Source: Patescibacteria group bacterium (GTDB taxonomy: Bacteria > Patescibacteriota > Patescibacteriia > JAXHNJ01). From it: DNA of 64,000 nucleotides. The stretch spans positions 196,964 through 260,963 of the forward strand of contig JBAZMP010000002.1 of assembly GCA_041649715.1 (NCBI GenBank). The letters run 5' to 3'. A program made the translations under genes and the position numbers. Below, in pieces: positions 9,233 through 64,000 of the stretch; the first letter of the stretch is position 1; each line of letters opens with the position of its first letter. Below the pieces are notes generated by a model that saw nothing but the letters and a program-made list of their open reading frames with translations, had not been told where the DNA came from and ran no database searches.

Positions 9233-9247
9233 TCCGTTGTAAAAAAT

Positions 9248-10419: not shown

Positions 10420-10495
10420 TGGTACCAGGGGTGGGGATCGAACCCACGACCTCGGGCTTATGAGTCCCACGCTCTACCAACTGAGCTACCCTGGC
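10420..10495 (-). tRNA. tRNA-Met (anticodon CAT; elongator-type features, could also be a lysidine-modified Ile2 type)
   Basis: Reverse complement is GCCAGGGTAGCTCAGTTGGTAGAGCGTGGGACTCATAAGCCCGAGGTCGTGGGTTCGATCCCCACCCCTGGTACCA. Cloverleaf folds with a CTCATAA loop, a C11-G24 pair and CCA encoded. Confidence 0.85.
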
Positions 10496-10496
10496 T

Positions 10497-10571
10497 TGGG
10501 TGCGGGGGTGGGATTTGCACCCACGACCTCCGGATTATGAGCCCGGCGAGCTGCTACTGCTCCACCCCGCG
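10497..10571 (-). tRNA. initiator tRNA-fMet (anticodon CAT)
   Basis: Reverse complement is CGCGGGGTGGAGCAGTAGCAGCTCGCCGGGCTCATAATCCGGAGGTCGTGGGTGCAAATCCCACCCCCGCACCA. It has the C1xA72 mismatch, an A11-T24 pair and G-C pairs at the base of the anticodon stem, all typical of bacterial initiators. It sits 1 nt from tRNA-Met. Confidence 0.8.
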
Positions 10572-11900: not shown

Positions 11901-11919
11901 TTCACCATTAACCGCCTTT

Positions 11920-12003
11920 GCCGCGGTGGCGGAATTGGTAGACGCGCACGACTCAAAATCGTGTGGGTGTAAATCCATGAGAGTTCGATTCTCTCCCGCG
12001 GCA
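11920..12003 (+). tRNA. tRNA-Leu (anticodon CAA)
   Basis: GCCGCGG acceptor, anticodon loop CTCAAAA, long variable arm and T-loop GTTCGATTC. CCA is not encoded. Confidence 0.85.
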
Positions 12004-12024
12004 TGTTAAAATTTTAAACTATAA

Positions 12025-20954: not shown

Positions 20955-21300
20955 TCATCGTATTCTTTCTTTTTGCTTTTTCTTGAGTAAAGCCTTGCGG
21001 ATATCTTTTTTGCAGTTTTTCCCGATTTTCGGCCAAGATTTCCGATAAATCCCAATTAAAGAAATTACAGATCATGGCGGCGTACCATAAGGTATCGCCA
21101 AGATTTTCCCGGATGCCCTCTTTTTGGTCGTTGGCGTGGGCGAATGTTTTCTTAATGCAGCTGGCGACATCGCCGGCTTCCCCGGTTATCCCTAATCCCC
21201 AGGTCATAATTTCTTTTTCCGGGTCAGTGAATTTTTTGGCAGTTGAACGGCACAATCTCTGATATTCAGATAAATCGGTCGTTTCTTTTTTTTCAGACAT
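20935..21300 (-). CDS. MazG-like nucleotide pyrophosphohydrolase domain protein
   Basis: 121 aa with an EExGD...E..GDxLW pattern (GITGEAGDV...ENLGDTLWYA). It overlaps the topA start. Confidence 0.6.
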   Translation of the reverse strand: MSEKKETTDLSEYQRLCRSTAKKFTDPEKEIMTWGLGITGEAGDVASCIKKTFAHANDQKEGIRENLGDTLWYAAMICNFFNWDLSEILAENREKLQKRYPQGFTQEKAKRKNTMIDWNEK

Positions 21301-21341
21301 ATTATTTTTTATAATGTAGAGTTTGTTTAACGAAGAAAGTC

Positions 21342-22433
21342 TTATCGGCCCAAAACATAATGCATGCCGCCGATATTTTTCACCATGCCCTTCATTTCCA
21401 TCAAGGTCAGGGCGGAATTGATAATACTAGGTTTTAGTTTACTACCTTCAATAATTTTGTCAATATGTAAGGGTTGCCGGCTTAAAATTTTTAATATTAT
21501 TTTTTCTTCGGCCGTGTCCGGAGAAATAGTCTGATTTTCTTGAAACTCGCCCGCCATTTCCAAGTTTAAGGGGTTTAAAATATCCGTATAAGAAGTGACC
21601 GGCCGTGCCCCCATTTTAATCAAATTATTCGGCCCGAGTGAATTGGGGGAAAAAATTGAGCCGGGCAGGCAAAAAACCTCCCGGTTTTGTTCCAGGGCGA
21701 AGCGGGCGGTAATCAGCGCTCCGGACCGCAGGGGAGCCTCAATTATCAGGGTGCCTAAAGAGAGGCCGGCAATAACCCGGTTCCTTTGGGGAAAATGAGG
21801 TTTTAAGGGAGGGGAGCCAAGGGGGAATTCCGACAGGATAAGACCTCTGTTTTCCAAGATTTTTTCGGCCAGTCGGTAATTAAGGCGGGGGTGAATTATA
21901 TCCAGGCCCGAGCCTAAAACAGCGATTGTCCGACCGCCGCTATCCAAGGTAGCCTGATGAGCGACCGCATCTATCCCTAAAGCCAGGCCGGAAACAATAG
22001 AGATTTTATTTTGTGCTAGTGGCCTGACGATTTCCTCTGTGGCTTGCCTCCCGTACGAAGAGGGTTTACGCGTGCCGACCACGGCGAAAAGAAATTCCGA
22101 GGGGTTAATGAATTCTCCCTGCCAATAAAGAACAGCCGGCGGGTCGTAGATTTCCTTTAAAAGCGCGGGGTAACCAGTATCTTTGATTGTCATTAAGCTT
22201 ATCTTTTCTTTTTCCAGTTTTTGCCATTCTTTTTCTAGAGCGATCTCTTTTTTCTTATTTTGTATTATGCTGATCATTTTTTCTTCCAGGCCGGCTTTTA
22301 GCAGCTCAAAACTTGAGGCGGCGTAAGCGTCCCCTAGATTTTTAAAATATGAATACAACTTTTTGAATCTGACCGGCCCGATTTCCGGGATCAGAGAGAA
22401 GAACAGCCAGTAGATTTTTTCTTGGCTTGACAT
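21342..22433 (-). CDS. dprA: DNA processing protein DprA (Smf)
   Basis: Rossmann-like core GTRKPSSYG...SGLALGIDAVAHQATL...TIAVLGSGLDIIHP. The dprA-topA adjacency is conserved in many bacteria. Confidence 0.85.
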   Translation of the reverse strand: MSSQEKIYWLFFSLIPEIGPVRFKKLYSYFKNLGDAYAASSFELLKAGLEEKMISIIQNKKKEIALEKEWQKLEKEKISLMTIKDTGYPALLKEIYDPPAVLYWQGEFINPSEFLFAVVGTRKPSSYGRQATEEIVRPLAQNKISIVSGLALGIDAVAHQATLDSGGRTIAVLGSGLDIIHPRLNYRLAEKILENRGLILSEFPLGSPPLKPHFPQRNRVIAGLSLGTLIIEAPLRSGALITARFALEQNREVFCLPGSIFSPNSLGPNNLIKMGARPVTSYTDILNPLNLEMAGEFQENQTISPDTAEEKIILKILSRQPLHIDKIIEGSKLKPSIINSALTLMEMKGMVKNIGGMHYVLGR

Positions 22434-22507
22434 AGTTATTATTTTGTGATAGATTATGAGATTAGTTGACGATTAGGTCTGCTTTCTTTCACAAAAAGAG
22501 GTAAAAG

Positions 22508-22759
22508 ATGTCAGGGATAACAGTTATGGAAGTAATCAGGAATGATGATAAGGCGGTTTTAGCCGTGACCCTCTTGGTGGATGGGGCAGAAATCACTTTC
22601 CGGCCGAAAGACGGCCGATTGATCGAGACTAGCCGCATGAATCCGCCGGGGACAAACGAGGGATCGCCCTATTTTTCTCCCAAGCTTTACGCCCAGCTTA
22701 AACGGGTTGCTGAATCCATCTATGGTGAGGGGCAATCTCGAATCAAAGCCGCTCACTAG
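22508..22759 (+). CDS. hypothetical small protein
   Basis: 83-aa ORF with an AGAGGT SD-like sequence. A stem-loop terminator follows. Confidence 0.4.
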   Translation: MSGITVMEVIRNDDKAVLAVTLLVDGAEITFRPKDGRLIETSRMNPPGTNEGSPYFSPKLYAQLKRVAESIYGEGQSRIKAAH

Positions 22760-22780
22760 AATCTGTGTTCTTTCTTTTCC

Positions 22781-22806
22781 GACAGGCACTCCGTGCCTGT
22801 CTTTTA
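22781..22806 (+). terminator. rho-independent terminator
   Basis: gacaggcac-tcc-gtgcctgtc 9-bp stem followed by TTTTATAAATAAAAAA. Confidence 0.6.
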
Positions 22807-22854
22807 TAAATAAAAAAGCGGCTTTTTCAGCCACCTCTTTGTCAATTCTGCACT

Positions 22855-25800
22855 TTACATGAATATCTTAACATACTCCATTAATTTTGACAACCAGTTT
22901 TTGCCTAACTGCTGTTTGTCGATCTTGATCTGCTCGTCAGTGAAATCCCAGGCGGGTTCTTTCTCAATCAGTTTTTTTATTTTTTCCGGGTATAATTTTT
23001 CGTAGAAATTAACCACCACTTTTTCTTTCTGGATGCCCTCAATATTGATTTTTACCCCGTTTATGCTGGAAACCTTGGCTTTTTGTCCGATAATCTTTAA
23101 CTTTAACAGGGCGAAGAGGTTTTCCAGGGGGGTCGGCAGGGAGCCGTATTTCTTTAAGAAATTATGGCGGTATCCTTCCAGCTCGCCAATGTCAAAGACA
23201 TTGGCCAGTTCCTGGTATATTTTTAAGCGTTTGCCTTCTTCGGGGATCAGCTCTTTCGGCAGGCCTAAACTCAAGGGCAGCTCGATCTGAATGTCTCGGA
23301 TCGGTTTGGCCACTCGGCCGGTTTTTAATTCTTCCATGGCCTGATTTAAAAGCCGTAAATATAGATTAAGACCGATCGCCTTGATGTGCCCGGATTGTTT
23401 ATGGCCTAATAAATTTCCCGAACCTCTGATTTCCAGGTCGCGGAGTGCCAGTTCGAAGCCGCCGCCCAGCTCCTTGGCTTCAAGCAAGGCTTTGAGCCTC
23501 TTGCGAGCCGTGGCTTTCATTTTTTTGGAATCATAAAGAAAGTAAGCGTAGGCTTTTTTATAAGAACGGCCGATGCGTCCGCGCAGCTGGTAGAGATCGG
23601 CCAGGCCGAAATGAGTGGCTTTTTCCACGATCAGAGTATTGGCGTTGGGCAGGTCCAGACCGTTCTCGATGATTGTTGAGCAGACCAGGAGATTTGTTTC
23701 CTGGTTGTCAAAGCGCCGCATTTCCTCCATCAGGTTTTTTTCATTCAGCCGGCCGTGGGCGACGCCGATCTTTGCCTTGGGTATCAGTTTTTGCAAGGCT
23801 CCCGCTTTCAGATTGATTGTTTCCACCTGGTTGTGAAGGTAATAGACCTGACCGTTCCGTTTGAATTCTTCTTCCGTCGCTTTTTTGATCAGTGATTCAT
23901 CGTAAGGAGTGATGTTGGTTTCGACCGCCTGGCGGCCCTCCGGCGGAGTAGTGATCAGAGAGACGTCGCGGAGGCCGGCCAATGAGAAGTTTAGGGTGCG
24001 GGGGATGGGAGTGGCGGAAAGAGTCAGAACATGAGCCTCGGCTCGTAAGCTTTTCAGTTTTTCCTTGTCATGGACCCCGAATCTCTGCTCCTCGTCGATA
24101 ATAATCAGGCCGAGGTCTTTGAATTTTACATCCGGGGAAAGCAGGCGGTGGGTGCCGATGACTATATCATAAAGGCCTGTCTTTATCTTCGCTAGAATTT
24201 CCTTTTGCGTTTTGGGAGAGTCCACCCGGCTTAAAAGCGCGGTATTGATGCCGAAAGAAGCCAGCCGGTTTTTAAAAGTGTCAAAATGTTGCTGGGTTAA
24301 GATCGTGGTCGGACAGAGGAGGACCACCTGTTTTTTATTTATGACGGCTCGGAAAGCGGCCCGCATGGCGACTTCGGTTTTGCCAAATCCGACATCACCG
24401 CAGATAAGCCGGTCCATCGGTTTGTTTTTTTCCAGATCTCCCATCACTTCCGCAATCGCTTTTTTCTGATCAGGCGTTTCCGTGAATTTAAAAGAAGTCG
24501 CCAATTCGTTTTCTTCCGCTTCGTGGGCTTTTAAGGGTACGGCTTTGGCGGTTTGACGGCTGGCATAGAGCTTGATCAGTTCGGAAGCGGTGATTTCCGC
24601 TGATTCTTTCACTTTGCGGGTAAGCTGAAGCCAGGCCGCGCCGGAGAGCCGGTGCAGTTTGGGATGCGATTCACCGATATATTTGCCGATTTTCTCCGCG
24701 TATTCAATGGGAACAAAGAGCTTGTCGTCTTCCGCGTATTCCAGGCAAAAATATTCTTTTTCCAAATCGTTGATTTTTTGGTAGATAATGCCTTTAAAAA
24801 CGGCGATGCCGTGGTCCATATGCACGACGAAATCACCCGGTTTTAGTTCATAGATCAGGGCGAAGTTAATTTTCTTGTGGGGCATTACCTCGTCTTTTTC
24901 CAGGTCGCCGAATATTTCATAGTCGGTAAGAAAAACGATCTTTTTCCGTTCCGAGACAAATCCACGTATTTTTTCGTGGGGCAGGTCCGTGATCTGGCAG
25001 GTATTTTTGACCTGAAACTCCTTGAATAAATGCCGGATAGATTTTTCTTTTTGGGTGGCCACGATTACCCGGAAATCGTTTTTCTGGTAATTTTTGATTT
25101 CCGAGGTGAGCTTTTTGAGGTTATTGAAGAAATAGGGACTAGGTTTGAAATCAAGCGGTTCGGTCTGTTTATTTTTTAAGCTTTGAAAAATTATCCGGGG
25201 GTAATTCTTTATTTTTTCGTCTATTTCCGGCCATTGAGGCGCGAATTCCTCAAAAGATTCCGGATCAGAATAAATAAAAGTGGGGGCGGATCTAAGATAT
25301 TCAAAGATAGGCGATTTAGGCGGGAGAAAATTAATATGAGCAGGTCTGATTATCAGCTCATGAAGATTTTTTTGCGGTTTTTTGCTTAAGAGATCAAATA
25401 CCTTGATCGTCTCGATTTTATTGCCCGAAAACTCGATTTTTAAAGGATTAGGGAGATTGATGGGAAAAACTTCGACCACGCCACCGTGACGGGCAAAACT
25501 GCCCTCCTTGGAGGCAAACTGACTAAATTCATAGCCCAGGTTAGCCAGCCATTGGCTTAAGCGGGCGGGATTAAGCGTAAGGTTGATTTTCAATTTAAGA
25601 GTGCTGTTTTCAAAATCTTGGACGGAAGGCAAAGTCTTGATAATATCGGCCGGCGTACAGACGATGATCAAGGCCTTTTTTTCCATCAGGCGGGAAAGCA
25701 GGCGACCGTCAAGATTAGAGAGATCAAATAAGGGTATTTTAAGCTGGTTCTGGTTCTGCCAATAAGTAAGATTAACTGTTATTTTTTCTTTTTCCTTGGT

Positions 25801-25971
25801 CTCTCTGACACACCAAAAAATCACCGCATTTTCTTTAGTTTTGAGGGCATGGTTTATTATATAATAGGTTTTGGCCGTGGTGTTGGTTACGCCGGTCAGT
25901 TCAACGGGTCTTTCAATAATTCTTTTCATCAATGTCCGCGTGCTTGATTTCTGGTCCAAATTATTTACCAT
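22855..25971 (-). CDS. mfd: transcription-repair coupling factor Mfd
   Basis: 1038 aa. Superfamily-2 helicase motifs ([23 protein letters not shown]) and TRCF-type N- and C-terminal regions. Confidence 0.9.
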
Positions 25972-26834: not shown

Positions 26835-28310
26835 TTAACGGTAGGTAAGGGCGTGCGATATCAGGGCGTCTTCGCCTAAGATTATCATTATATCAAAATT
26901 ATTGTTTCCGTTAAAGTTTAAGTTGATATTTTCTATTTGGTTCAAGGCGTTGATATTCATGGTATTGCCGGAAGTCATGTCTTCAAAAATGGCGGGTAAA
27001 TTCGTGATAACGGCGGCGTTGAATTTTTCCTTTAGGGCATCGACAGTATGCGGAAGTTGGCCGCTTGTTTTGTCATAGATAATGGTTTCTTTGATATTTT
27101 TCTCCGGATAATTTTCCACCCCGATAATATCATAATTCAGGGCTTCCAGCTCCCTTGCTTTTAAAGAGGCCAAGCCGGGCGTATTGGTGCCGTTTTCTAG
27201 GACAATTTTCGCCTTTTCTTTTTCTATCTCGTTCTGGCTAAAGATATTTTTTGCCAAAGCCTGCACTTCGGAAAAATCTCCGGCTTTCGGGATTAACAAA
27301 TAGGCGCCGTTTTCCCCGGTTATATTCTTTAACAGGCCATTTTCGGAATTATCAATGACGTAGTTTATAATATTGTCTTTGCCGATATTCTGGGCCAGGG
27401 TGTAAAAGCGCAGCATTTCCCAGACCTCCATATTGGTTTTGGTGTGGGTCCCCAGGGTATTCAAAATTTCTGAGATTTTACTCGGATTAATAAGGGTGGA
27501 AAAAGAAGTGATTTTATCTTTCAGGGCGAGAAGCACTTTTTGTTGTCTGGCCGCCCGTGCGAAATCCGAACCCTCGCCGTTATTACCGTGGCGGGAACGC
27601 ACGTATTTCAAAGCCGTGGCCCCGTCCATCAGTTGGTCTCCGGCCTTGAAGCTGACGGTTTGATAGCCGTAATTATCCGTCGGGTAGGTCGCATCAGAAA
27701 AACTTTTTTCCACGTTTATTCTTACTCCTCCCAGGCCGTCGATCAATTGTTCGAAGCCGGAAAAATCTACCCGGCCGTAGTATTGGATCTCAAGGCCGGT
27801 GACATCACTGACTGTCTTTACCATTAAGGCCTCACCGCCGCCTGCGTAATTCATTTCCTGTCCGAAAAAAAGGCCGTTATTTATTTTTCGGGAATAATAG
27901 GGTGCGGGAAAATCGACGGCTAGGTCGCGGGGCACGGAAAGAAAGGCGACCTGATTGGTTGAGGGTTTAAAGCTGACCAAGATAAGGGTGTCAGTAAGAA
28001 GGGCGCCTTCATGGCCGGTGCCGCCGATTCCCATCAGCAGAATATTGATGCGATCTTTTTCTTCGCCGGCGATCGTGTCATTGGTTTTTGTGAGAAGGTG
28101 GGTGAGCTGGGAAAAAAGTGAGACTTTCGTGTTGGTTGAGTCCTGGTTGGTTTGAATATTCAGGGAAGAAAGGAATTTAATCGAAAGGCCAAGGCCGATG
28201 ATTACGAGAGTGACTAAAAGAGAACCAAAAATCTTGCTCCAGAACAGGAGGGCGGGGTGGGCAGACTTTTTTTTGTTTGGTTTTGAGACCAGGTTGGGTG
28301 TGATATTCAT
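26835..28310 (-). CDS. LytR-CpsA-Psr (LCP) family protein
   Basis: N-terminal TM, then the LCP core RINILLMGIGGTG...DTLILVSF...AFLSVPRDL and an extra C-terminal domain. Confidence 0.8.
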   Translation of the reverse strand: MNITPNLVSKPNKKKSAHPALLFWSKIFGSLLVTLVIIGLGLSIKFLSSLNIQTNQDSTNTKVSLFSQLTHLLTKTNDTIAGEEKDRINILLMGIGGTGHEGALLTDTLILVSFKPSTNQVAFLSVPRDLAVDFPAPYYSRKINNGLFFGQEMNYAGGGEALMVKTVSDVTGLEIQYYGRVDFSGFEQLIDGLGGVRINVEKSFSDATYPTDNYGYQTVSFKAGDQLMDGATALKYVRSRHGNNGEGSDFARAARQQKVLLALKDKITSFSTLINPSKISEILNTLGTHTKTNMEVWEMLRFYTLAQNIGKDNIINYVIDNSENGLLKNITGENGAYLLIPKAGDFSEVQALAKNIFSQNEIEKEKAKIVLENGTNTPGLASLKARELEALNYDIIGVENYPEKNIKETIIYDKTSGQLPHTVDALKEKFNAAVITNLPAIFEDMTSGNTMNINALNQIENINLNFNGNNNFDIMIILGEDALISHALTYR

Positions 28311-55708: not shown

Positions 55709-55785
55709 GGGCGCGTAGCTCAGTTGGTTAGAGCGTACGGTTCACATCCGTAAGGTCATAGGTCCGACTCCTATCGCGCCCACCA
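55709..55785 (+). tRNA. tRNA-Val (anticodon CAC)
   Basis: GGGCGCG acceptor, D-arm GCTCAGTTGGTTAGAGC, anticodon loop TTCACAT, and CCA encoded. Confidence 0.85.
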
Positions 55786-55827: not shown

Positions 55828-56535
55828 ATGCCGGAAAAACAATCGGCCCAAGGCCGATCCGCCTCGGGCGGAGAAGAAAAAAAAAGCGAAAGTGAAGATC
55901 AAATTGACGCTAGTCATGTAAGGCCGGGTTTTAAGCGGCTAGCCAGGCTGCAGCGGAAAGAAGAATTTTTGCCTTCGTTCAGCAAGTCTTTCCTTTCTTT
56001 TGTGATAGAGGTAGTGAAGGTCGTGGTGATTTCTTTGGCCATTATCATTCCCATCCGGTATTTTCTTATCCAGCCTTTTTATGTGCGAGGCGCTTCCATG
56101 GAACCGAATTTTCACGACAACGAGTATTTGATCATCAATGAGATCGGTTACCGTTTTTCTGCCCCGCAGAGAGGGGACATTGTGGTCATTAAAAGCAAGC
56201 TTGTCGCCAAAGAGTACTTGATTAAAAGAGTGATCGGCTTGCCTCAAGAAAAAATAGAGATCAACGGCGGAGAAGTCAAAATTTACAATAAAGATAATCC
56301 AGAGGGAAGGGTTTTGAAAGAAGAATATCTGGCTAAAGATATTACGACCAGCGGCAATAATATCATTACTTTGAAAAGCGATGAATATTATGTCATGGGC
56401 GACAACCGTCCGTCATCCTTGGATTCGCGGAGCTTCGGCGCCATAAAAAGGGACGAGATCGTCGGCCAGGCGTGGCTGCGGGCCTGGCCTTTCTATAAAT
56501 TGAAGCATTTTACTACTCCCGAATATAATCTATAA
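55828..56535 (+). CDS. lepB: signal peptidase I
   Basis: S26 motifs GASMEPNF, VMGDNRPSSLDSR and GAIKRDEIVGQA. Start set at ATG 55828 to avoid overlap with the tRNA. Confidence 0.85.
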   Translation: MPEKQSAQGRSASGGEEKKSESEDQIDASHVRPGFKRLARLQRKEEFLPSFSKSFLSFVIEVVKVVVISLAIIIPIRYFLIQPFYVRGASMEPNFHDNEYLIINEIGYRFSAPQRGDIVVIKSKLVAKEYLIKRVIGLPQEKIEINGGEVKIYNKDNPEGRVLKEEYLAKDITTSGNNIITLKSDEYYVMGDNRPSSLDSRSFGAIKRDEIVGQAWLRAWPFYKLKHFTTPEYNL

Positions 56536-56539
56536 AATT

Positions 56540-57865
56540 ATGAACAAGAAAAAAGAAGCGAAGATAACGCCACCCGCGCTTTTGCGCGGCATGAAGGATA
56601 TCCTGCCTTCAGACCAAGACTATTGGTTCTGGCTAGGCGATAAAGTGAGGGCGATGGCGGCCGCCTACGGTTTTGAAAGAATCGATACCCCGATCATGGA
56701 GGGGACCTCTCTTTTCTCCCGTTCCATAGGCGAGGAAACAGATATTGTCAGCAAGGAAATGTATTCTTTCGTCGACCAGGGCGGCGATAAAATCACCCTG
56801 AGGCCGGAGGGCACGGCCCCGATCGCTCGAGCCTATATCGAGCACGGGATGATTAATCAGCCCCAGCCGATCAAGCTCTATTATTGGGGGCCCTTTTTCC
56901 GGCATGAAAGGCCGCAGGCGGGGCGTTATCGTCAGCTCTGGCAACTCGGCTTTGAGGTTTTAGGCGAAGCGGACCCGGTGATTGACGCTGAGATTATCCT
57001 TTTGGTCCATTCTTTTTACCAGGAAATCGGCTTGCCGGTGACCATCCAGGTGAACAGTATCGGCTGCCCGGTCTGCCGCGAGGATTACAAGCTGGTTTTG
57101 GTGGATTTTTTCCGGCCGCGCCGCAGTTCGCTGTGTGAAGATTGCAAAAAAAGACTGGTAAAAAATCCCTTAAGGATTTTAGACTGTAAGGTTAAGGAAT
57201 GCGCAGAGATCGCCAAGGAAGTGCCGCAGATTGTTGATCATCTCTGCGAGGATTGCCGTCTTCATTTTACCCAGGTTTTGGAATTTTTAGATGATCTGGA
57301 AATATCCTACTCCTTGAATCCTCATTTAGTGAGGGGTTTGGATTATTACACTAAGACCATTTTTGAGGTCTGGACGGCCGACGGAGAGGTCGGCAGTCAG
57401 TCGGCCTTGGCTGGCGGCGGACGCTACAATAATCTGGTGGAGAGCCTGGGCGGCCGGCCGACGCCGGCGATCGGTTTTGCCGCAGGCATAGAAAGGATGA
57501 TCATTAAACTGAAGGAAAAAAATATCGCGGCCCCGGCGGCCGACAGACGAGAGATTTTTGTCGCTCAATTAGGCGACAAGGCGCGGAAAAAATGCCTGAA
57601 ACTTTTCGAGGAGCTGCGCCGGGATGGTTTTAAGGTAAGAGAGAATTTGTCCAAGAACGGATTGAAAGATCAGCTGGAAGTGGCTAACAAACTCGGCGTG
57701 AAGTTTGCCCTGATTATCGGCCAGAAGGAAATCATGGATGACACGGTCCTTATCCGCGATATGGAAAGCGGCATTCAGGAAGTGTTGGATTATAAAAGGA
57801 TCGCTCAAGAAGTGAGGAAGCGTCTGGAAAAATCCAACACCAATTTTATCAACCATACGCCCTAA
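56540..57865 (+). CDS. hisS: histidyl-tRNA synthetase
   Basis: Class II aaRS motifs (FRHERPQAGRYRQ, GGGRYNNLV) and HisRS-type architecture. Confidence 0.85.
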   Translation: MNKKKEAKITPPALLRGMKDILPSDQDYWFWLGDKVRAMAAAYGFERIDTPIMEGTSLFSRSIGEETDIVSKEMYSFVDQGGDKITLRPEGTAPIARAYIEHGMINQPQPIKLYYWGPFFRHERPQAGRYRQLWQLGFEVLGEADPVIDAEIILLVHSFYQEIGLPVTIQVNSIGCPVCREDYKLVLVDFFRPRRSSLCEDCKKRLVKNPLRILDCKVKECAEIAKEVPQIVDHLCEDCRLHFTQVLEFLDDLEISYSLNPHLVRGLDYYTKTIFEVWTADGEVGSQSALAGGGRYNNLVESLGGRPTPAIGFAAGIERMIIKLKEKNIAAPAADRREIFVAQLGDKARKKCLKLFEELRRDGFKVRENLSKNGLKDQLEVANKLGVKFALIIGQKEIMDDTVLIRDMESGIQEVLDYKRIAQEVRKRLEKSNTNFINHTP

Positions 57866-57867
57866 AA

Positions 57868-58200
57868 ATGGAAGATTGTATTTTTTGCCAAATTGTCGCC
57901 AAAAAAATTCCCGCGCGCATTTTTTGGCAAAATGATGAATTTCTCGTTTTCTATGAAATCAAACCCAGGGCACCTCTTCATCTCCTGGTCATTCCTAAAA
58001 AACACCTCGTTCTTGACGAAGTCGGAGAAGGAGAAGCCAACCTTTTGGCAAACCTTATTTTAACGGCCAAAAAAGTGGCGGAAAAAGCGGGTTTGTCGCA
58101 GGGTTATCGCCTGGTCATAAATAATGGTCGGCAGGCAGGCCAGGAAGTTGACCACTTGCATCTGCATCTCCTGGGCGGCGGTAAGCTGGCGGCTTTTTAG
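57868..58200 (+). CDS. HIT family protein
   Basis: Histidine triad HLHLHLLGG. Confidence 0.85.
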   Translation: MEDCIFCQIVAKKIPARIFWQNDEFLVFYEIKPRAPLHLLVIPKKHLVLDEVGEGEANLLANLILTAKKVAEKAGLSQGYRLVINNGRQAGQEVDHLHLHLLGGGKLAAF

Positions 58201-58201
58201 T

Positions 58202-58230
58202 TTGACTTAATACAATTAAAATGTTATATT
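58202..58230 (+). promoter_or_regulatory. sigma70-like promoter TTGACT-17-TATATT for rpsU-yqeY
   Basis: TTGACT at 58202-58207 and TATATT at 58225-58230. A 12-bp perfect inverted repeat overlaps the -10. Confidence 0.5.
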
Positions 58231-58274
58231 ATTAAAGCTAATAATATAACACTTTTGAAAAGGAGGTGAACAAC

Positions 58275-58559
58275 TTGGTCGAGGTACGGAAAAGAGACGG
58301 AGAATCGGTGGAAAGCCTCTTGAGGCGTTTTACCAGGCGAATGCAACAAAGCGGAACATTGCTCCGGGCCAAGAAAGGGAGATTCTACCAGCCCCCCAAA
58401 AACAAAAGACAAGTGAAAGAAGAAGCTTTGCGGCGGAAATCCTTGCGGGAAACCAAGGAATATTTGCGTAAAACGGGGCAAATAGATGACATCCGTGATC
58501 CCAAAAAATTGAGCCAGATTCTAAAACTTACTTTAAAGCAAAAAGAAAAAAAGAAATGA
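58275..58559 (+). CDS. rpsU: 30S ribosomal protein S21
   Basis: VEVRKRDGESVESLLRRFTRR...GRFYQPP is S21-like. A TTG start at 58275 lies 8 nt after the AGGAGG SD; the track's start at 58266 overlaps the SD. Confidence 0.75.
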   Translation: MVEVRKRDGESVESLLRRFTRRMQQSGTLLRAKKGRFYQPPKNKRQVKEEALRRKSLRETKEYLRKTGQIDDIRDPKKLSQILKLTLKQKEKKK

Positions 58560-59014
58560 CCCTAAAGGAGCGACTGGAAGAAGATTATAAAACGGCTTTC
58601 AAACAGGGCCGCCATTTGGCCGTGGAGGCTTTAAGGATGCTAAAGGCCGAGGTGAAAAACGCCGAAATCGCCAAACGGAAAGATTTTGACGATCATGACG
58701 TGTTGGAAGTGATCCTGCGCGTGGCCAAACGACACCAGGATTCTATCACTGCTTTTAACAAAGGAGGGCGTCAAGATCTAGCCGACCACGAAAAAGAGCA
58801 GCTGGCGGTTTTGCAAGCTTATCTGCCGGCAAAACTTTCCGAAGAAGAACTTAGGGATATTATCAATGAATTGATAGCGGAAAGCGGAGCCAAGGGTCCG
58901 GCGGATTTCGGCCGGGTAATGGGTTCGGTCATGAAGCAGGTAAAAGGCCAGGCCGACGGCACGCTGATCAGTAAAATCGTCAAAGAAGAACTAAATAAAA
59001 AACAAACCACTTAA
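58556..59014 (+). CDS. GatB/YqeY domain protein
   Basis: YqeY-like sequence, in the usual position downstream of rpsU. Confidence 0.75.
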   Translation: MTLKERLEEDYKTAFKQGRHLAVEALRMLKAEVKNAEIAKRKDFDDHDVLEVILRVAKRHQDSITAFNKGGRQDLADHEKEQLAVLQAYLPAKLSEEELRDIINELIAESGAKGPADFGRVMGSVMKQVKGQADGTLISKIVKEELNKKQTT

Positions 59015-59028
59015 AAAGCCTGATTCGT

Positions 59029-62000
59029 ATGGGCAGAGGAGGCAAAAAAAATATTTATCTTGGTATCCTCGCGGTCGTTTTTTTGTCGGTCGGCGGTTTT
59101 TTTGTCTGCGCTCATTTAGCCTCCGCCCAGACGGCGTTGCAGTTAGAAGATGTCGGTGGCACCCTTGGCTTGACGACCGTAAACTTAAAGACCCTGGTCA
59201 TTAATATTATCAGATGGTTTTTAGGCATTATCAGCCTGGTGGCGGTGGCTTATCTTATCTACGGCGGAATTTTGTGGCTGACCTCGGCGGGCAACGAAGA
59301 AAAGATCAAAAAAGCGAAAAAGACAATATTAAACGCCATTATCGGTGTAATCATTGTGTTGCTGTCCTGGGCGATTTTTTTGCTGGTCACTCATTTTATC
59401 ACCGACGCGACTAACGGGAATGGAAATCAGGCCTGCACGCCCCCGGCCCATACCGCGGATGATTGTTATGTCTGTCAAGGATCGCCGCCGGTTTGGGTGC
59501 CCAACGGCAGTCCGGCCAATCCCGCCCTTTGCTTGGCTTTTCCCACGGATTTTAGGCTGAACGACATAGAAACCAGCGCTATTTCCGACCTCTCGGAAAT
59601 TTATACCTGCAGCAATATCCAATCGCGGTTCAATAACGGCGTCTACGGTACCTCGGTCGATAGCGCGGTGACGGCCGATACTTTAAAGATCGAGAAAGTC
59701 GATGGTTCAGTGAAAAAGGAAGGAGCCTGGCAGACTAACGCCAGGACGGTTACCTTCTATCCCAGGCGATGCTCGAATCCGCCCAATGATCCCTGCCGGT
59801 ACGACGCCGATTGCGGCGGCGGCAATACCTGCGATGTGGTCTACTTTGACGATCTTTCCGATTACAGGCTGCATCTGCCAAAAAGCATTCAGGATGTGTC
59901 GGCCCCCGTCAGGAAGAATCTTTCAAGTTTTGATACTCTTGTTCTTGGCCCATGGTGCCAAGACGCCGGAACAGAAATCCAGTGCACTTTTCATACCAGT
60001 GATCAGAAGGATATTGCCGAACCCATCCTGGTGAGCGCTTATCCCGTATTATCAACCCAAGCTGGTTATCCCGACACAAACGTGCCGCGGCTACCGACCA
60101 TTTCCGTGCTTTTTTCCGAAAATGTTGACGCCGGCACCGTGGTCGATTCAGTTAACCCGTCTTTGCCTAACAGCAATAATATTTTCATACAGCAATACGA
60201 CGCCCAAAACGGAAGCCTAAAAGTAGGCGGCGCGGTCGACTCAAATTCGGATGGGACCGTCGACCCGGACAAGTTAAGGGTGGGCGAAGCAGCTAATGGC
60301 TTTAATCTTTTCCTCCAGGGCGGTTATTTCGAAGCTTTTACCTGGTATAAAATAACGGTCCAAAATATTGAGGATCTTTGCGGTAACACCATGACGCCGG
60401 CCTCGGTCGAATGGTGGTTTGAAACCAACGATGTCGTGCCCGGCTTTACCGGATTTTATCCCACCGGCAACAATGAATGTCCGGACGTCCATGCTTGGGC
60501 GACTTTTGGCACGGCCATGTACATGTATGACGTGACTTTAACGATCAACGATATTTCTGCTGGGCCCAAAGACGCGCCACGAGTCATCGGTATAAACGGC
60601 AGCACGACCACAACGGGGAGCGCAAGCAACTATGCCGGTACCTTGACCATTCGGGATTTTAACGAGAGTACGCCGGCCAACGGCAACAAATGGTATGAGT
60701 TTGTTCCAGCCACGCCATTTTCTCCCAGCCATACCTACGCGGCGACGATCGCGACCAATCTGGTCATTGATACGTCTGGCGGCACGCTTGCTACTGCTTG
60801 GCAATTTAAGGTGGCGACCGCCGCCGATTGCACCTGTACCCCCGCTATCGCTTCCTTGAGCCCGGCCCCATCGGCCGGCCTGATCGGCGAATGCCTGACC
60901 ATCAACGGCAGCTGTTTTACCGGTACCGCTGCCCACGCGGCGACACCGATAAATTTGACTTTTGGCAGCTTAACAGCTGATATTCAGGGTTTTGGAAACA
61001 ATTTTATTACCACCATCTCGCCTGATCCGCGTCCCGTCACTTTTCCCAATACCGTGGCCATTAAATTTTCTATTGATTACGGCGCGACTTACGGCGTGCA
61101 AAACACGGCCGCCGGCTATAACTATACCTATAATAGCGACAAGGAAGCCACCGGCCCCTGTCTTTTTTCTATTTCGCCAAGCGTGACCTATCCGGGCACG
61201 GCCGTCACTTTAACCGGAATCCGGTTTAACCCGGCCAACCCGGCGACGAGAAGAATTGACTTCATTCCGCCTGGATTGTCGCCCTCCATTTCTTCTTGGT
61301 CAGACGGACAAATATACAGTTCGGTTCCAAGCACCTCCTTTAGCGGGACCAGCAACGCTAGCCTCACTAATGATATCGGTACTTCAAATAGCGTTCCTTT
61401 TACAATCAATCAGTACCCGCCTGGCGTGCCGGTAGTCACCCGGTATTGGCCGACTTGCGATTCGGCCTGCACCAACGCGGTGGCCGGGGCCACGTTCAGT
61501 GAAGAGATGGACAGGAATACGATGACGACCGCTAATATCAAATTAGACCATTGCACAGATATTGATTGTAATGATTTTGTTATGCCGGCTCCCGTATATT
61601 CCGTAAGTTATGATATCCCGGGCAAGACATTAACCATCATTCCTTCCGCTAACATGTTGCCTGACAGTTGGTATAAAGTGACCCTGCTCGAGGGAATCAA
61701 GAGCACGGCAAACGTGAGCATCGGCAATCCTAATGATGGAACCAGTTTTATTTGGAAATATAAAACTAAGAATGACGCCTCATTGTGCGCCCCGGCTTCA
61801 GTGGATGTCTCGCCGGCGACTTACACGGCGAAGATCAATCAGACTGATCTGCCATATACGGCCTATGCTAAAGGTTCGCCGGACAGCTGTAATGCCGGCG
61901 GTCAGATATTAAACGGCAATGCCTATGACTGGTCTTGGACCAGTTTGCCGTTGGGTTTGGCCAATGTCAGCAATACCGACAGCAATGGCGACGGCAATGT

Positions 62001-64000
62001 AGATTCTGCTCAAAGGGTTGCCACTCTGGGAAATCCGGGCGCGACCAATATATTCGCTTCAGTCGGCAGCTTAAACAATCGTGGTGTTTTAAATATTACA
62101 GTCGATCCGACCTATTGTTATGCCGACGCGGATTGCAACCCGCAACCGGCGAATCCTTGTCCGGGCAGTGTCTGCAGGGACAATCATTGCACGCCGGTGA
62201 TAAATTCCTTTTTACCCACGGACGGCGCCGTCGGCACCTGGGTGACGATTAACGGCTGTTGGTTCGGCAATTTCGAGGATGGTAAAAGCAAGGTATTATT
62301 TAGAGGTATTGGCGGCGATAAAGAGGGGATTGTTCCCAATCCGATGATTTGCGGTCCGGGTACCTGGACAAATACCCGGATTGTCCGCGAGTCCCCAAAC
62401 GCTTCGACCGCCGACCTTGCGGATGACGCGATTGACGGGTCGATAAAGGTCGTGCGGGGTTTTGATTCGGCGGAAGTGAGCACAGCCACTAATTTTGACG
62501 TAAACAATCTTTCTCATCCCGGCATTTGCTATGTCAATCCGGAAAGCGGCCGCGAAGGCATCACGGAGGTGCAGATTAGGGGCAAAAATTTCGGGACCAG
62601 CAAGCAATCCACCGATCATGTCACTTTTTATAATTCAGTCGGCCGGATTGAAGCGGATTATACGCCGGCCATTTGGGAAGATAATAATATCAGGGTTATC
62701 GTGCCGGTCGGCGCTCAGACTTCCTTAAACGAGGGCCTTAAAATTACGAAGGGTGCGATTGACAGCAATCCTTGGCCTTTTACCGTAGCGGCCGCCGACT
62801 GTACGCCTTGTACCGCCGACAGCGAGTGCGCGGCGCGCGCCTGCGGAGCGGATAAATGCTGTCATGATCGTCCGAGCGTCGCTTCTACCACGCCGTTGGA
62901 CGGCGCGACCAATGTCTGTTTGAATACGGTGATCGAGGTCCGTTTTAACCAAGATATGGATGTTGCTACTTTCACGCCTGGAAATATCACTGTTATGCGT
63001 TCCGGGCCACCGGCCGGACCCGTGCCCGTGAATTCACAAAATATCACCGCTGGCAGCCGTTGGTTGCGCCTGAACTTTGGTCTTTTGGCGGGTAATAACC
63101 AATACGTTATCAGGTTAGCCGCGGGCATCAAAAACGCGCAAGGAATCGCGATGGGCGGTGATTATCAATTCGGATTCACCACGGCCAATACTTCCGATCC
63201 CTGCCAGCTTTCTCGGATTACGATTGATCCGACTGTTCATACTTTTATGAAGTCTGATCCGGCAAAAGAATTTTCCGCTCAAGCCTACGATAATAATAAT
63301 AACCAAATAAATCGAATCCCCGGGGTTTATAGCTGGACGTGGTCTTGGTCAGTCGCCGACAGCAGTATTCTTGTCTTGAATGCCCCAGGTGATTCTGATA
63401 CGGTCAACGCTCAGCCCGCTGCTCCCCGGAAAAATGGCAACACTACTTTAAAAGTCGAAGCTAAGGCCCTAGACCCAGTGATTGGTTTCACTGGCAGCAA
63501 AGAGGCGACAGCGGCGGTGCGCGTGATCAATTGTGATGTGGCCTGGACTTTTACCGACCAGGCAAATAATTGCGAAAGTGACGTAATTTTTGGCGGATGC
63601 GGCAATAGCTATAATTTCCGCTTAGAATATTGTCGCGGTCTATACGGTCTATGCCAAGGCGGTTCAGCCGCGGATGTTTGTTCCGCCAATTACGCCGCCA
63701 CTTGTCCGACGGGAGAGACTTGTTGTCCAGCCGCGACTCCGAATTGTACTTTTACTAATAATAAGCCCTTGCCCTTTTTTGACATTCAGACGGCGAGCGG
63801 CCAGACCGGGAACGTTTTGAAACAGTTTCTTTTCAAGGAATCAGATGACACGAAGAAAGACGGCATCGGAGTGCGCATTTTTGCCAATCCCGAACTGCTT
63901 TCCCCGACCGCCTGGTATGATATTAATATTAAGATAAAAGGTTCGCCGCAGACGACGACCGTTGATGGATATGAGGCGATCAGAGACGGCCGGACCGTTT
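59029..64000 (+). CDS. giant surface protein (more than 1650 aa, 3' end outside window): N-terminal two-TM pilin-like segment plus Cys-rich IPT/TIG-like repeats
   Basis: Frame-1 ORF from ATG 59029 (MGRGGKKNIYLGILAVVFLS...). No listed ORF occupies this frame to the window end, consistent with a frame that has no stop and is therefore not listed. Two hydrophobic helices flank LTSAGNEEKIKKAKK. Later repeats resemble IPT/TIG (ISPSVTYPGTAVTLTGIRFNP; INSFLPTDGAVGTWVTINGCWFG). Confidence 0.6.
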   Translation, partial: MGRGGKKNIYLGILAVVFLSVGGFFVCAHLASAQTALQLEDVGGTLGLTTVNLKTLVINIIRWFLGIISLVAVAYLIYGGILWLTSAGNEEKIKKAKKTILNAIIGVIIVLLSWAIFLLVTHFITDATNGNGNQACTPPAHTADDCYVCQGSPPVWVPNGSPANPALCLAFPTDFRLNDIETSAISDLSEIYTCSNIQSRFNNGVYGTSVDSAVTADTLKIEKVDGSVKKEGAWQTNARTVTFYPRRCSNPPNDPCRYDADCGGGNTCDVVYFDDLSDYRLHLPKSIQDVSAPVRKNLSSFDTLVLGPWCQDAGTEIQCTFHTSDQKDIAEPILVSAYPVLSTQAGYPDTNVPRLPTISVLFSENVDAGTVVDSVNPSLPNSNNIFIQQYDAQNGSLKVGGAVDSNSDGTVDPDKLRVGEAANGFNLFLQGGYFEAFTWYKITVQNIEDLCGNTMTPASVEWWFETNDVVPGFTGFYPTGNNECPDVHAWATFGTAMYMYDVTLTINDISAGPKDAPRVIGINGSTTTTGSASNYAGTLTIRDFNESTPANGNKWYEFVPATPFSPSHTYAATIATNLVIDTSGGTLATAWQFKVATAADCTCTPAIASLSPAPSAGLIGECLTINGSCFTGTAAHAATPINLTFGSLTADIQGFGNNFITTISPDPRPVTFPNTVAIKFSIDYGATYGVQNTAAGYNYTYNSDKEATGPCLFSISPSVTYPGTAVTLTGIRFNPANPATRRIDFIPPGLSPSISSWSDGQIYSSVPSTSFSGTSNASLTNDIGTSNSVPFTINQYPPGVPVVTRYWPTCDSACTNAVAGATFSEEMDRNTMTTANIKLDHCTDIDCNDFVMPAPVYSVSYDIPGKTLTIIPSANMLPDSWYKVTLLEGIKSTANVSIGNPNDGTSFIWKYKTKNDASLCAPASVDVSPATYTAKINQTDLPYTAYAKGSPDSCNAGGQILNGNAYDWSWTSLPLGLANVSNTDSNGDGNVDSAQRVATLGNPGATNIFASVGSLNNRGVLNITVDPTYCYADADCNPQPANPCPGSVCRDNHCTPVINSFLPTDGAVGTWVTINGCWFGNFEDGKSKVLFRGIGGDKEGIVPNPMICGPGTWTNTRIVRESPNASTADLADDAIDGSIKVVRGFDSAEVSTATNFDVNNLSHPGICYVNPESGREGITEVQIRGKNFGTSKQSTDHVTFYNSVGRIEADYTPAIWEDNNIRVIVPVGAQTSLNEGLKITKGAIDSNPWPFTVAAADCTPCTADSECAARACGADKCCHDRPSVASTTPLDGATNVCLNTVIEVRFNQDMDVATFTPGNITVMRSGPPAGPVPVNSQNITAGSRWLRLNFGLLAGNNQYVIRLAAGIKNAQGIAMGGDYQFGFTTANTSDPCQLSRITIDPTVHTFMKSDPAKEFSAQAYDNNNNQINRIPGVYSWTWSWSVADSSILVLNAPGDSDTVNAQPAAPRKNGNTTLKVEAKALDPVIGFTGSKEATAAVRVINCDVAWTFTDQANNCESDVIFGGCGNSYNFRLEYCRGLYGLCQGGSAADVCSANYAATCPTGETCCPAATPNCTFTNNKPLPFFDIQTASGQTGNVLKQFLFKESDDTKKDGIGVRIFANPELLSPTAWYDINIKIKGSPQTTTVDGYEAIRDGRTV

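Follow-up and report, generated by a model that had tools for sequence, protein, structure and literature searches.

What does the reading frame that runs off the 3′ end of this 64-kb window, the whole stretch of DNA analysed here, encode? The preliminary description reported a giant surface-protein ORF that stays open to the window end for more than 1650 codons and that is missing from the accompanying ORF list. Translation of positions 59029–64000 agrees with both statements: frame 1 from ATG 59029 runs for 1657 codons through base 63999 without meeting a stop, and the ORF is unlisted because frames that run past the end of the source sequence were left out. The stop-to-stop frame opens at 58999, and its first start codon is ATG 59029, 14 nt past the yqeY stop. 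Followed into the adjacent contig region, as that description had suggested, the gene is completed 627 nt past the window end (Table 1), and the window covers the N-terminal 89% of an 1866-aa protein. This complete protein, P0001, is 100% identical across the whole query, lies on a 262-kb Patescibacteria metagenome-assembled (MAG) contig and carries the sole annotation "Ig-like domain-containing protein"; a sequence search of P0001 against PDB chains gave no match. The source names of the matches assign the organism to the CPR/Patescibacteria, in line with the preliminary description, which had called such a protein typical of episymbiotic or CPR-like bacteria.

An open frame of 1657 codons has a chance of ~2.8e-35 under a uniform-codon model, and DNA tandem repeats of note are absent from the gene. 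The orthologue at one locus (L012/L090) is broken into two ORFs, one of 175 aa and the other of at least 1197 aa, as might be expected if the open frame were a chance product, an assembly artefact or a decaying pseudogene. Such an origin is contradicted by the chance figure (~3e-35), by the presence of the identical protein on two independently assembled contigs, and by dozens of intact orthologues that share 27–45% identity and keep domain order and synteny. We regard it as effectively refuted, with a negligible residual probability. The open frame is a genuine gene of an ultrasmall CPR/Patescibacteria bacterium and encodes a cell-surface protein of 1866 residues.

Table 1. Features of the giant gene and its upstream flank, in window coordinates (aa, residues of the 1866-aa protein).
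Feature	Coordinates	Strand	Basis
Upstream neighbours: signal peptidase I, HisRS, HIT, (S21), YqeY	55828..59014	+	Pfam; shared gene order
Giant gene, first 1657 of 1866 codons (P0001)	59029..64000	+	No stop; full-length identical protein; entire gene at L001 10001-15601
Predicted Sec signal peptide, aa 1-33	59029..59127	+	KK n-region, hydrophobic core aa 7-27, AF2 helix 5-32
VirB2-type pilin hairpin: helix 53-85, turn/loop SAGNEEKIKKAKK, helix 90-128	59185..59412	+	PF18895 at aa 53-117, AF2
Cys-rich linker (aa 136-170), then first Ig-like beta-sandwich (aa ~175-325) with disulfide-rich insert	59434..60018	+	AF2 pLDDT 80-90, Foldseek
Two Big_5 (PF13205) modules, aa ~335-465 and ~470-594, boundaries inferred	60031..60810	+	Partial matches
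First IPT/TIG pair, aa 603-795	60835..61413	+	TIG E 0.012 in P0001; homologous segments
Big_5 module, aa 801-909	61429..61755	+	32.8 bits, cutoff 23.6
Beta-rich module, aa 920-1025, without Pfam match	61786..62103	+	Collinear, conserved in homologues; Ig-like fold only inferred
Cys-rich knot, aa 1030-1054, 5 Cys	62116..62190	+	Cys positions
Second IPT/TIG pair, aa 1055-1250	62191..62778	+	PF01833 on segment 1052-1256
Cys-rich knot, aa 1258-1278, 6 Cys including CTPC	62800..62862	+	Cys positions
Big_5 module, aa 1281-1385, strongest Big_5 match	62869..63183	+	59.6 bits, profile positions 4-105 of 105
Beta-rich module without Pfam match (aa 1392-1500), then Cys-rich region (aa 1502-1573, 10 Cys)	63202..63747	+	Cys positions
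Start of conserved C-terminal module (module aa 1575-1866; aa 1575-1657 in window)	63751..64000	+	AF2, hhalign

All three hydrophobic segments of the protein are confined to aa 1–128 in the hydropathy profile. The preliminary description had noted two hydrophobic helices flanking LTSAGNEEKIKKAKK and had likened them to a pilin/VirB2 hairpin. Both points hold: hydropathy peaks at aa 53–70 and 96–110 fall within helices predicted by AF2 (helices 5–32, 53–85 and 90–128; hairpin pLDDT 72–80), and PF18895 (T4SS_pilin), which has a cutoff of 26.6, is matched at 42.1 bits by the whole translation and at 45.8 bits by aa 1–250. A leader followed by two hydrophobic helices with a short basic loop between them is the layout of the PF18895 family. 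The NCBIfam Mbov_0395 pilin-like model reaches 37.9, slightly short of its cutoff of 40; PF04956 (TrbC/VirB2) finds no match in the giant protein and scores 28.1 bits (cutoff 27.9) in a small relative at locus L035. Foldseek with the N-terminal model retrieved no solved VirB2/TraA pilin, only Ig-like domains (E 0.03–0.07), as expected for a bare helical hairpin.

The leader carries an A-S-A↓Q motif at which it is presumably cleaved, and AxA-Q is kept in 20 homologues. The hairpin, whose helices are joined by a conserved GNEEKIxKAKK loop, is the best-conserved stretch of the protein, with 57% mean identity versus 16–46% in other parts. Since a generic membrane anchor need not be the most conserved part of a protein, the hairpin probably does more than anchor. 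No other ORF in the window encodes such a hairpin. VirB2 sensu stricto consists essentially of the hairpin alone in ~70–150 aa, a size far exceeded here, where 1740 of 1866 aa follow the hairpin.

This ectodomain is built from ~11 beta-sandwich modules (Big_5, IPT/TIG) with Cys-rich knots between them. IPT/TIG-like modules and CxxC motifs had been suggested before, and the domain search recovers both. PF01833 scores 24.6 bits (cutoff 20.9) on segment 1052–1256 and matches 13 of 16 homologous segments, eight for each TIG pair with both pairs scanned jointly (best 1.1e-17). CxxC motifs lie at C146/C149 and C1258/C1261, and the whole protein contains 57 Cys. Big_5, a family that the preliminary description had not named, is the strongest Ig-like family in the whole-protein Pfam scan, with 109.5 bits over four stretches; its partial matches cover aa 348–394 (26.2 bits) and aa 548–594 (29.5 bits). 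The best Foldseek matches of the first ectodomain module are the Ig-like domains of TssM, ECAM, LdtMt2 and the S-layer protein SbsC (probability ~1, E 0.03–0.07).

The chain ends in a conserved module for which AF2 gives a confident model (pLDDT 85.8, pTM 0.85) that shows a 27-residue helix followed by strands. Its proximal half is a conserved alpha/beta subdomain of ~120 aa with no assigned fold. The distal half contains a pilin-head-like part (aa ~1712–1841), which lies outside the window. Aligned with hhalign to a profile of 30 Patescibacteria type IV pilins, the distal half gives a probability of 95.1% (E 3.2e-8, 98 columns), a match that is convincing only with the 30-sequence profile and falls to 49% against a single pilin. 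The match spans pilin columns 50–156 of 176 and begins after alpha1-N. PF07963 (N_methyl) has no match in the whole protein or in 250-aa pieces, and the class III signal peptide and the alpha1-N helix are absent. No PDB structure matched the C-terminal model significantly in Foldseek (best E 0.0098, TM <0.25), so the link to the pilin head comes solely from the profile–profile comparison; the C-terminal profile gave noise only against PDB chain sequences. PsbP, SciW and Bet v 1-like folds were among the weak Foldseek matches. Judged from the alignments, the distal half and the globular head of type IV pilins from the same lineage appear to be homologous.

The same C-terminal module also occurs in stand-alone secreted proteins. 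In the orthologues P0002–4, P0007 and P0008 and in the fragment P0021, the head contains an insertion of ~120–140 aa, annotated as PF02018 (CBM_4_9) in P0004 and P0021. Because these insertions sit inside the head, the distal tip looks like a binding site.

We favour, with moderate confidence, an extended surface fibre that is anchored in the membrane, displays a binding module at its distal end and would act as an adhesin. Signal peptidase I would remove the leader, and the hairpin would then reside in the cytoplasmic membrane, its Lys-rich loop (EEKIKKAKK) facing the cytoplasm, which would place residues ~130–1866 outside the cell. At an assumed ~4 nm per module, the Ig-like modules would form an extended stalk of ~45–50 nm that carries the C-terminal module off the cell. 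That module would bind a host-cell ligand or a surface glycan, and the protein would thereby serve as an adhesin or a spacer. Attachment, which the preliminary description had put forward as a possible role, is plausible for the protein: the topology, the stalk of Ig-like modules, the resemblance of the distal module to a pilin head and the insertion of CBMs in orthologues are all consistent with it. Among the lineages that carry the gene, Kerfeldbacteria have been reported to attach unusually strongly to their hosts (PMC7906910).

The gene stands in a conserved neighbourhood, ordered SPase-HisRS-S21-YqeY-GIANT-TSP3 protein-PsbP-like protein-YbeY-DgkA-FtsA-FtsZ. The 14-nt gap from yqeY contains no terminator-like site, and the upstream neighbours are probably co-transcribed with the giant gene. 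Six divergent genomes have the order from S21 to FtsZ in common; the upstream order is matched in L003, L005, L007 and L008, and L009 retains YqeY alone upstream. Across 80 species-representative loci, the upstream neighbours are present at 65 and ORFs of at least 1400 aa number 52, with the C-terminal module in 45 of these 52. Of the 80 species-level genomes from the scan, 50 or more carry the giant gene, as a single copy at a fixed chromosomal position, and the named relatives are Kerfeld-, Kuenen-, Falkow-, Magasanik-, Uhr- and Buchananbacteria. It is a vertically inherited, syntenic core gene of this Patescibacteria lineage. The two downstream genes, co-oriented with it, encode single-pass proteins with Ca-binding TSP3 repeats (TSP3_bac, 60 bits) and PsbP-like domains (PsbP, 27.4 bits), and the giant protein probably acts together with them. 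Host-range adhesins usually vary fast and are located in variable regions, and it is atypical for them to be encoded by a single-copy gene of collinear domain order within a housekeeping operon.

This setting could also suit a structural envelope component, an S-layer-like or periplasm-spanning scaffold or spacer that is possibly coordinated with division and is not an adhesin. It would agree with a core gene that is collinear, single-copy and placed in a housekeeping operon just ahead of ybeY-dgkA-ftsA-ftsZ, with neighbours that encode Ca-binding TSP3 partners, and with the Big_5 modules and the SbsC match of the first ectodomain module; Bacillus-type S-layer proteins have Big_5 as their Ig-like domain. 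However, Pfam scans of the whole protein and of its pieces revealed no SLH or other known S-layer anchor domain, and gene order kept in reduced CPR genomes need not mean a functional link to FtsA/FtsZ. Moreover, orthologues differ more than twofold in length (1458 to >3600 aa) and their distal modules gain CBM insertions, both of which fit a projecting ligand-binding fibre better than a lattice. We consider an envelope role unlikely.

The hairpin raises the further question of whether the gene belongs to a type IV secretion system (T4SS). It is not part of a T4SS locus: virB4, virB6 and virD4 are absent from the largest ORFs of the window and from the 10-kb flanks of the giant gene at six related loci. 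A T4SS locus was rejected because a scan of most of the large window ORFs and of these six flanking regions revealed only glycan-modification and housekeeping genes. Stand-alone pilins of 117–146 aa exist and share 55–70% identity with the entire N-terminal module of the giant (mature N-terminal peptide plus hairpin). Small pilins are 61–62% identical to the giant P0014 of the same genome, the small pilin at L046 is 66.7% identical to its same-genome giant at L013, and P0119 is 58% identical to P0001. At L035 a pilin array adjoins SBP and DUF2079 genes, and at L046 the small pilin is flanked by dnaB and a P-type ATPase gene; neither of these two giant-like small pilins has virB4, virB6 or virD4 beside it. 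A further candidate small pilin, P0056 (175 aa, 64% identity), was rejected as the N-terminal fragment of a broken giant orthologue.

These pilins suggest that the giant may co-assemble with them. Under this reading, which refines the surface-fibre model and does not exclude it, the N-terminal module would polymerise, and the giant would be built into a small-pilin filament or membrane platform, whether at its tip, at its base or only sporadically. In addition to the identity of the small pilins to the whole N-terminal module, its supports are the hairpin's standing as the giant's most conserved region and the very large size of the PF18895 superfamily, with 37,520 cluster representatives at E <=1e-3. 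The pilin termini of F-type pili point outward, an arrangement that would allow a C-terminal extension to be displayed. The VirB2-like pilin array of Saccharibacteria is essential (PMC10633639; PMC12857230). VirB2-like pilins are reported to be widespread among the monoderm Patescibacteria and essential in the single species tested (PMC12102498, PMC12857230). Against co-assembly, virB4, virB6 and virD4 are missing within 10 kb of the giant at the examined loci as well as beside the two small pilins, and small pilins show only a marginal preference for the giant hairpin of their own genome. A 1740-aa extension on a 95-aa pilin would be sterically hard to fit in a helical filament, and the literature so far records no PF18895 pilus observed in any Patescibacteria. 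We hold polymerisation with the small pilins to be possible though rather doubtful. Equally tentative is the suggestion that the giant is the first VirB2-type pilin with its own adhesin, co-assembling in a monoderm and bearing a type IV pilin-like head at the tip of a ~50 nm stalk.

Patescibacteria represent a substantial part of bacterial diversity, and most of them live in attachment to other cells. To our knowledge, no attachment machinery has been established in them beyond Saccharibacteria, and the giant gene is a concrete, easily located attachment candidate. The role of Patescibacteria VirB2-like pilins has been left unexplained (PMC12102498, PMC12857230). In the giant family a VirB2-like pilin module is followed by an extended Ig-like stalk and, at the far end, by a head like that of type IV pilins; if the giant does co-assemble with the small pilins, one polypeptide would merge modules of two unrelated bacterial pilus systems, and the VirB2-like pilins would gain a concrete role in host attachment. 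The family could also help to show whether PF18895 hairpins serve for assembly or simply as anchors. The literature on PF18895, on PF13205 in Patescibacteria and on giant CPR surface proteins contains no description of such an architecture, and the combination of hairpin, stalk and head defines a conserved family with no prior characterisation.

Among known systems, the Patescibacteria VirB2-like PF18895 pilins (Wang 2023, PMC10633639; Quinonero-Coronel 2025, PMC12102498) likewise have a long leader, two hydrophobic helices and a short basic loop. Those described are all small, and PrgB-like adhesins are reported as undetected in Patescibacteria; one of two recent papers found no adhesins with the T4SS (PMC12102498, PMC12857230). 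The giant has 1866 aa where they have ~120, fuses a 1740-aa ectodomain C-terminal of the hairpin, and is encoded in a housekeeping operon and not near virB4, virB6 or virD4. With SiiE, the Bap/LapA-type T1SS adhesins and the LPXTG-anchored fibrillar adhesins, it shares an Ig-like beta-sandwich stalk with a distinct terminal module, and like such giant adhesins it is predicted to be extracellular. Unlike them, it would be anchored by an N-terminal pilin-type hairpin and lacks a C-terminal anchor: the C-terminus (...CFNYRITGP) has no LPXTG motif with hydrophobic segment and basic tail, and nothing hydrophobic lies past aa 128. Pfam scans of the whole protein and of 250-aa pieces found no RTX/HemolysinCabind families, and the protein has a Sec-type leader instead. 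Its modules also differ from those of giant Ig-like adhesins in being divergent, ordered and collinear in homologues, and not recent tandem repeats.

The sole link to the S-layer proteins SbsA/SbsC is that one Ig-like module weakly resembles SbsC in structure. The closest counterparts of the distal subdomain are the Patescibacteria type IV pilins and T2SS GspG-like pseudopilins (PF07963), whose entire globular head aligns with it and shares the motifs RDxKRxxDL...L..Y....YP, LPxDP and Y.Y....Y.L.a.lE. In contrast to type IV pilins, the giant's module stands at the end of a Sec-exported protein and has neither a class III signal peptide nor a hydrophobic alpha1-N; canonical entry into a type IV pilus is therefore precluded. 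FimH-type two-domain tip adhesins differ in fold and assembly system, and co-assembly of the giant is put forward only as a hypothesis. They nevertheless offer a functional analogy, since in them too a pilin-type assembly module is coupled to a distinct part for binding, and the assembly module recurs in small paralogues.

The preliminary description had proposed that an open frame beginning at ATG 59029 continues to the window end over more than 1650 codons and encodes a giant surface protein. Translation of frame 1 across 59029–64000 confirmed the open frame, yielding 1657 codons without a stop, a run with a chance probability of ~3e-35 under a uniform-codon model. No start codon precedes ATG 59029 in the stop-to-stop frame, and 14 nt, free of any terminator-like site, separate it from the yqeY stop. 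The frame is absent from the ORF listing, as had been remarked, solely because it runs past the window end. A protein search returned P0001, an 1866-aa protein with 100% identity across the entire query, encoded on a 262-kb contig in the MAG of a "Patescibacteria group bacterium", where its sole name is "Ig-like domain-containing protein". The complete gene is present on two independently assembled contigs and, followed into the adjacent contig region, ends 627 nt beyond the window. An artefact or pseudogene is thereby excluded. At species level, the nearest orthologue (L012/L090, 10001–14288; best segment 64% identical) is broken into two ORFs, one of 175 aa and one of at least 1197 aa, through a frameshift or an assembly error, unless it is a recent pseudogene.

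All three hydrophobic segments of the protein lie within aa 1–128. The first (aa 7–27), with KK before it and A-S-A|Q after it, resembles a Sec signal peptide, and the AxA-Q motif is kept in 20 homologues. The second and third segments, separated by the loop SAGNEEKIKKAKK, had been described as a pilin/VirB2-like hairpin. Consistent with this, they match PF18895 (T4SS_pilin) at 42–46 bits (cutoff 26.6), and an AF2 model places helices at 53–85 and 90–128 (pLDDT 72–80); at 37.9, the match to the pilin-like NCBIfam model Mbov_0395 falls slightly below that model's cutoff of 40. The hairpin is homologous to VirB2-like pilins.

Beyond the hairpin, the protein contains Ig-like modules. Big_5 (PF13205) matches at 109 bits over four stretches, most strongly at aa 1281–1385. 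The predicted IPT/TIG-like modules were only marginal when the whole protein was scanned; segment 1052–1256 taken separately reaches 24.6 bits with PF01833 (cutoff 20.9), and 13 of 16 homologous segments also match this family (best 1.1e-17). The first module after the hairpin (aa 175–325) is modelled as an Ig-like sandwich (AF2, pLDDT 80–90), whose Foldseek neighbours, the Ig-like domains of TssM, ECAM, LdtMt2 and the S-layer protein SbsC, score with high probability yet E values of 0.03–0.07. The beta-rich modules at aa 920–1025 and 1392–1500 matched no family. The expected Cys-rich character is also evident, with 57 Cys, CxxC pairs among them, clustered in short knots (aa 1030–1054, 1258–1278 and 1502–1573). 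The absence of DNA tandem repeats from the gene indicates that its modules are old and divergent.

The C-terminal module (residues 1575–1866), of which the window covers just aa 1575–1657, matched no Pfam family. It ranks second in conservation, at 45–46% identity versus 16–40% for most of the stalk. Searching with this region recovered 31 Patescibacteria proteins of ~200–500 aa, a few of them fragments; most of those inspected carry their own signal peptide, and the module therefore also occurs as a stand-alone secreted protein. The core module of these stand-alone proteins (P0022–P0049) matched no Pfam family in any member. The same proteins frequently bear extra Cys-rich segments, some have C-terminal Ig-like extensions, and P0044 has a Laminin_G_3-type insertion. 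An AF2 model built on a 32-sequence alignment (pLDDT 85.8, pTM 0.85) comprises an alpha/beta subdomain, a 27-residue helix and a small sheet. A resemblance between the motif ARDLRRVSDLRTI..LE.YR...YP and the alpha1-C helix of type IV pilins from CPR bacteria led us to compare the module with such pilins. One pilin, from locus L009, gave a probability of only 49%, and 30 diverse PF07963 pilins combined in a profile gave 95.1% (E 3.2e-8, 98 columns). The aligned columns, 50–156 of 176, span the entire globular head and exclude the hydrophobic alpha1-N helix. By profile comparison, the C-terminal part and type IV pilin heads are homologous. Five orthologues (P0002–4, P0007 and P0008) and fragment P0021 carry an extra domain of ~120–140 aa within the head, after LE.YR, annotated PF02018 (CBM_4_9) in P0004 and P0021.

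We propose that the leader would be cleaved and that the basic loop would be cytoplasmic by the positive-inside rule, placing residues ~130–1866 outside either way. About 11 sandwich modules would then form a stalk of ~45–50 nm, and the CBM insertions and free secreted form of the C-terminal module suggest that it may be a distal binding site. The product is probably a membrane-anchored surface fibre or adhesin, and the pilin-like hairpin and Ig-like modules lend overall support to the surface-protein interpretation first put forward.

An exhaustive phmmer search with aa 1–135 retrieved 37,520 cluster representatives at E <=1e-3. The best 150 fell into three groups: ~55 giants (1272–3568 aa, 42–59% identity) with one N-terminal hairpin each, many proteins with 2–17 tandem hairpins, and a few small single-hairpin proteins. 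Tandem-hairpin proteins of Patescibacteria type include P0052–P0055, P0062 (1775 aa, 17 matched stretches; P0054 has 8 in 820 aa), P0076 and P0170, among others. The literature on Patescibacteria pilins reports separate pilin genes in arrays, and fused poly-hairpin proteins are not mentioned in the published work searched.

A stand-alone subclass of small pilins (117–146 aa) shares 55–70% identity with the giants' entire N-terminal module, spanning mature N-terminal peptide and hairpin. Two genes at L035 are 61–62% identical to giant P0014 of the same genome, the L046 pilin and the giant of its own genome (L013) share 66.7% identity, and P0119 is 58% identical to P0001; the preference for the same-genome giant is marginal. 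The giant amounts to a small pilin with a ~1740-aa C-terminal extension. The main refinement of the fibre model, in which the hairpin is an assembly unit packing with small paralogues, is less likely than not. No T4SS genes lie beside the small pilins at the two loci examined (L035 and L046), nor is a T4SS ATPase gene among the L035 neighbours scanned. L035 also encodes a 389-aa protein (8651–9820) fusing a PF18895 hairpin to a PG_binding_1 domain, so the hairpin is a modular N-terminal unit for various ectodomains; its gene heads an array in which three genes encode small pilins (125, 146 and 123 aa).

Six orthologues (27–44% identity, contigs up to 1 Mb) share the order (SPase-HisRS-HIT)-S21-YqeY-GIANT-TSP3-repeat protein-second single-pass protein-YbeY-DgkA-FtsA-FtsZ. 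A 168-aa gene directly follows the giant in L001 (15642–16148), and two single-pass membrane proteins follow it in every one of L003, L005, L007, L008 and L009. The first carries TSP3 Ca-binding repeats (TSP3_bac, 60 bits); the second matches PsbP (27.4 bits) and has Asn/Thr-rich low-complexity spacers and DxDxDG motifs. Both are possible partners of the giant.

Scanning one genome per species gave 80 loci from Kerfeld-, Kuenen-, Falkow-, Magasanik-, Uhr-, Buchananbacteria and other Patescibacteria. SPase, HisRS, S21 or YqeY lies immediately upstream in 65 of the 80; among 52 ORFs of at least 1400 aa, 50 retain the upstream synteny and 45 the C-terminal module. Complete giant ORFs number 34 (1458 to 3411 aa, median 2308), and downstream genes were visible in the flank at 27 loci. 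Domain order and synteny are conserved, and the giant is thus a core gene of the lineage, inherited vertically and confined to a single locus. It is neither mobile nor conjugation-associated, and the window ORFs scanned include no T4SS genes. An envelope or S-layer-like scaffold, the main though unlikely alternative to the surface fibre or adhesin, is suggested by the gene's core status, its Big_5 domains and the Ca-binding proteins encoded beside it. Many public MAG records titled 'uncultured Gammaproteobacteria bacterium' (L013, L018, L026, L027, L029, L031, L036, L039 and others) contain the giant gene, which is specific to Patescibacteria, in Patescibacteria-type synteny; their record-level taxonomy appears wrong.

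Features of the window around the giant gene
Feature	Position	Strand	Remark
Secreted CAP/SCP-domain protein, 411 aa	6923–8158		ordinary gene
Two adjacent tRNA-Met(CAT)	10420–10571	minus	
tRNA-Leu(CAA)	11919–12004		
DprA, topoisomerase I, Mfd	18738–25971	minus	clustered; ordinary genes
Pth, LytR (with the Mfd listed above)	upstream part; LytR 26835–28310	LytR minus	
Glycosyltransferases, B12-binding radical-SAM enzymes, methyltransferases, large membrane proteins	28469–55639		~27-kb cluster after LytR
tRNA-Val(CAC)	55709–55785		
Signal peptidase I, HisRS, HIT, YqeY	between ~27-kb cluster and giant		

GC is 0.51 within the giant gene (window 60001–64000) and 0.40–0.49 in the remaining window; the composition of a Gly/Ala/Thr/Pro-rich ectodomain is a more likely cause than recent horizontal transfer because synteny is conserved. 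The ~27-kb cluster between LytR and tRNA-Val/signal peptidase encodes at least five radical-SAM enzymes, of which four have a B12-binding domain and one is of the SPASM type, alongside three methyltransferases, five glycosyltransferases of the GT2 family and five large membrane proteins of 700–947 aa (two PTPS_related matches, three without a Pfam match). The equivalent interval in L003, L005 and L008 has no more than a single GT2 gene plus one small additional gene, so the cluster looks like a lineage-specific surface-glycan island beside tRNA-Val. The TTG start listed for the signal peptidase (55786) directly adjoins tRNA-Val, making 55828 the more plausible start.

The papers defining Patescibacteria T4SS pilins treat small pilins only (PMC12102498, PMC12857230, PMC10633639), one of them stating that PrgB-like adhesins went undetected, and the literature searched contains no description of the giant's architecture. 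As context only, Kerfeldbacteria are reported to be attached to their hosts with unusual firmness (He et al. 2021, PMC7906910). The giant contains a PF18895 domain but, given its size and genomic context, is no VirB2 pilin in the strict sense. Its logic is similar to that of giant Ig-like adhesins, although anchoring features of the RTX/T1SS and LPXTG types are both missing. At the C-terminus it shares homology with type IV pilin heads, but the class III signal peptide and alpha1-N of those pilins are absent. Already public under a generic name, the gene is an ordinary member of its own family; that family is uncharacterised and unusual in that a VirB2-type anchor and a tip resembling type IV pilins occur together in a protein whose gene has a fixed place in the core genome.
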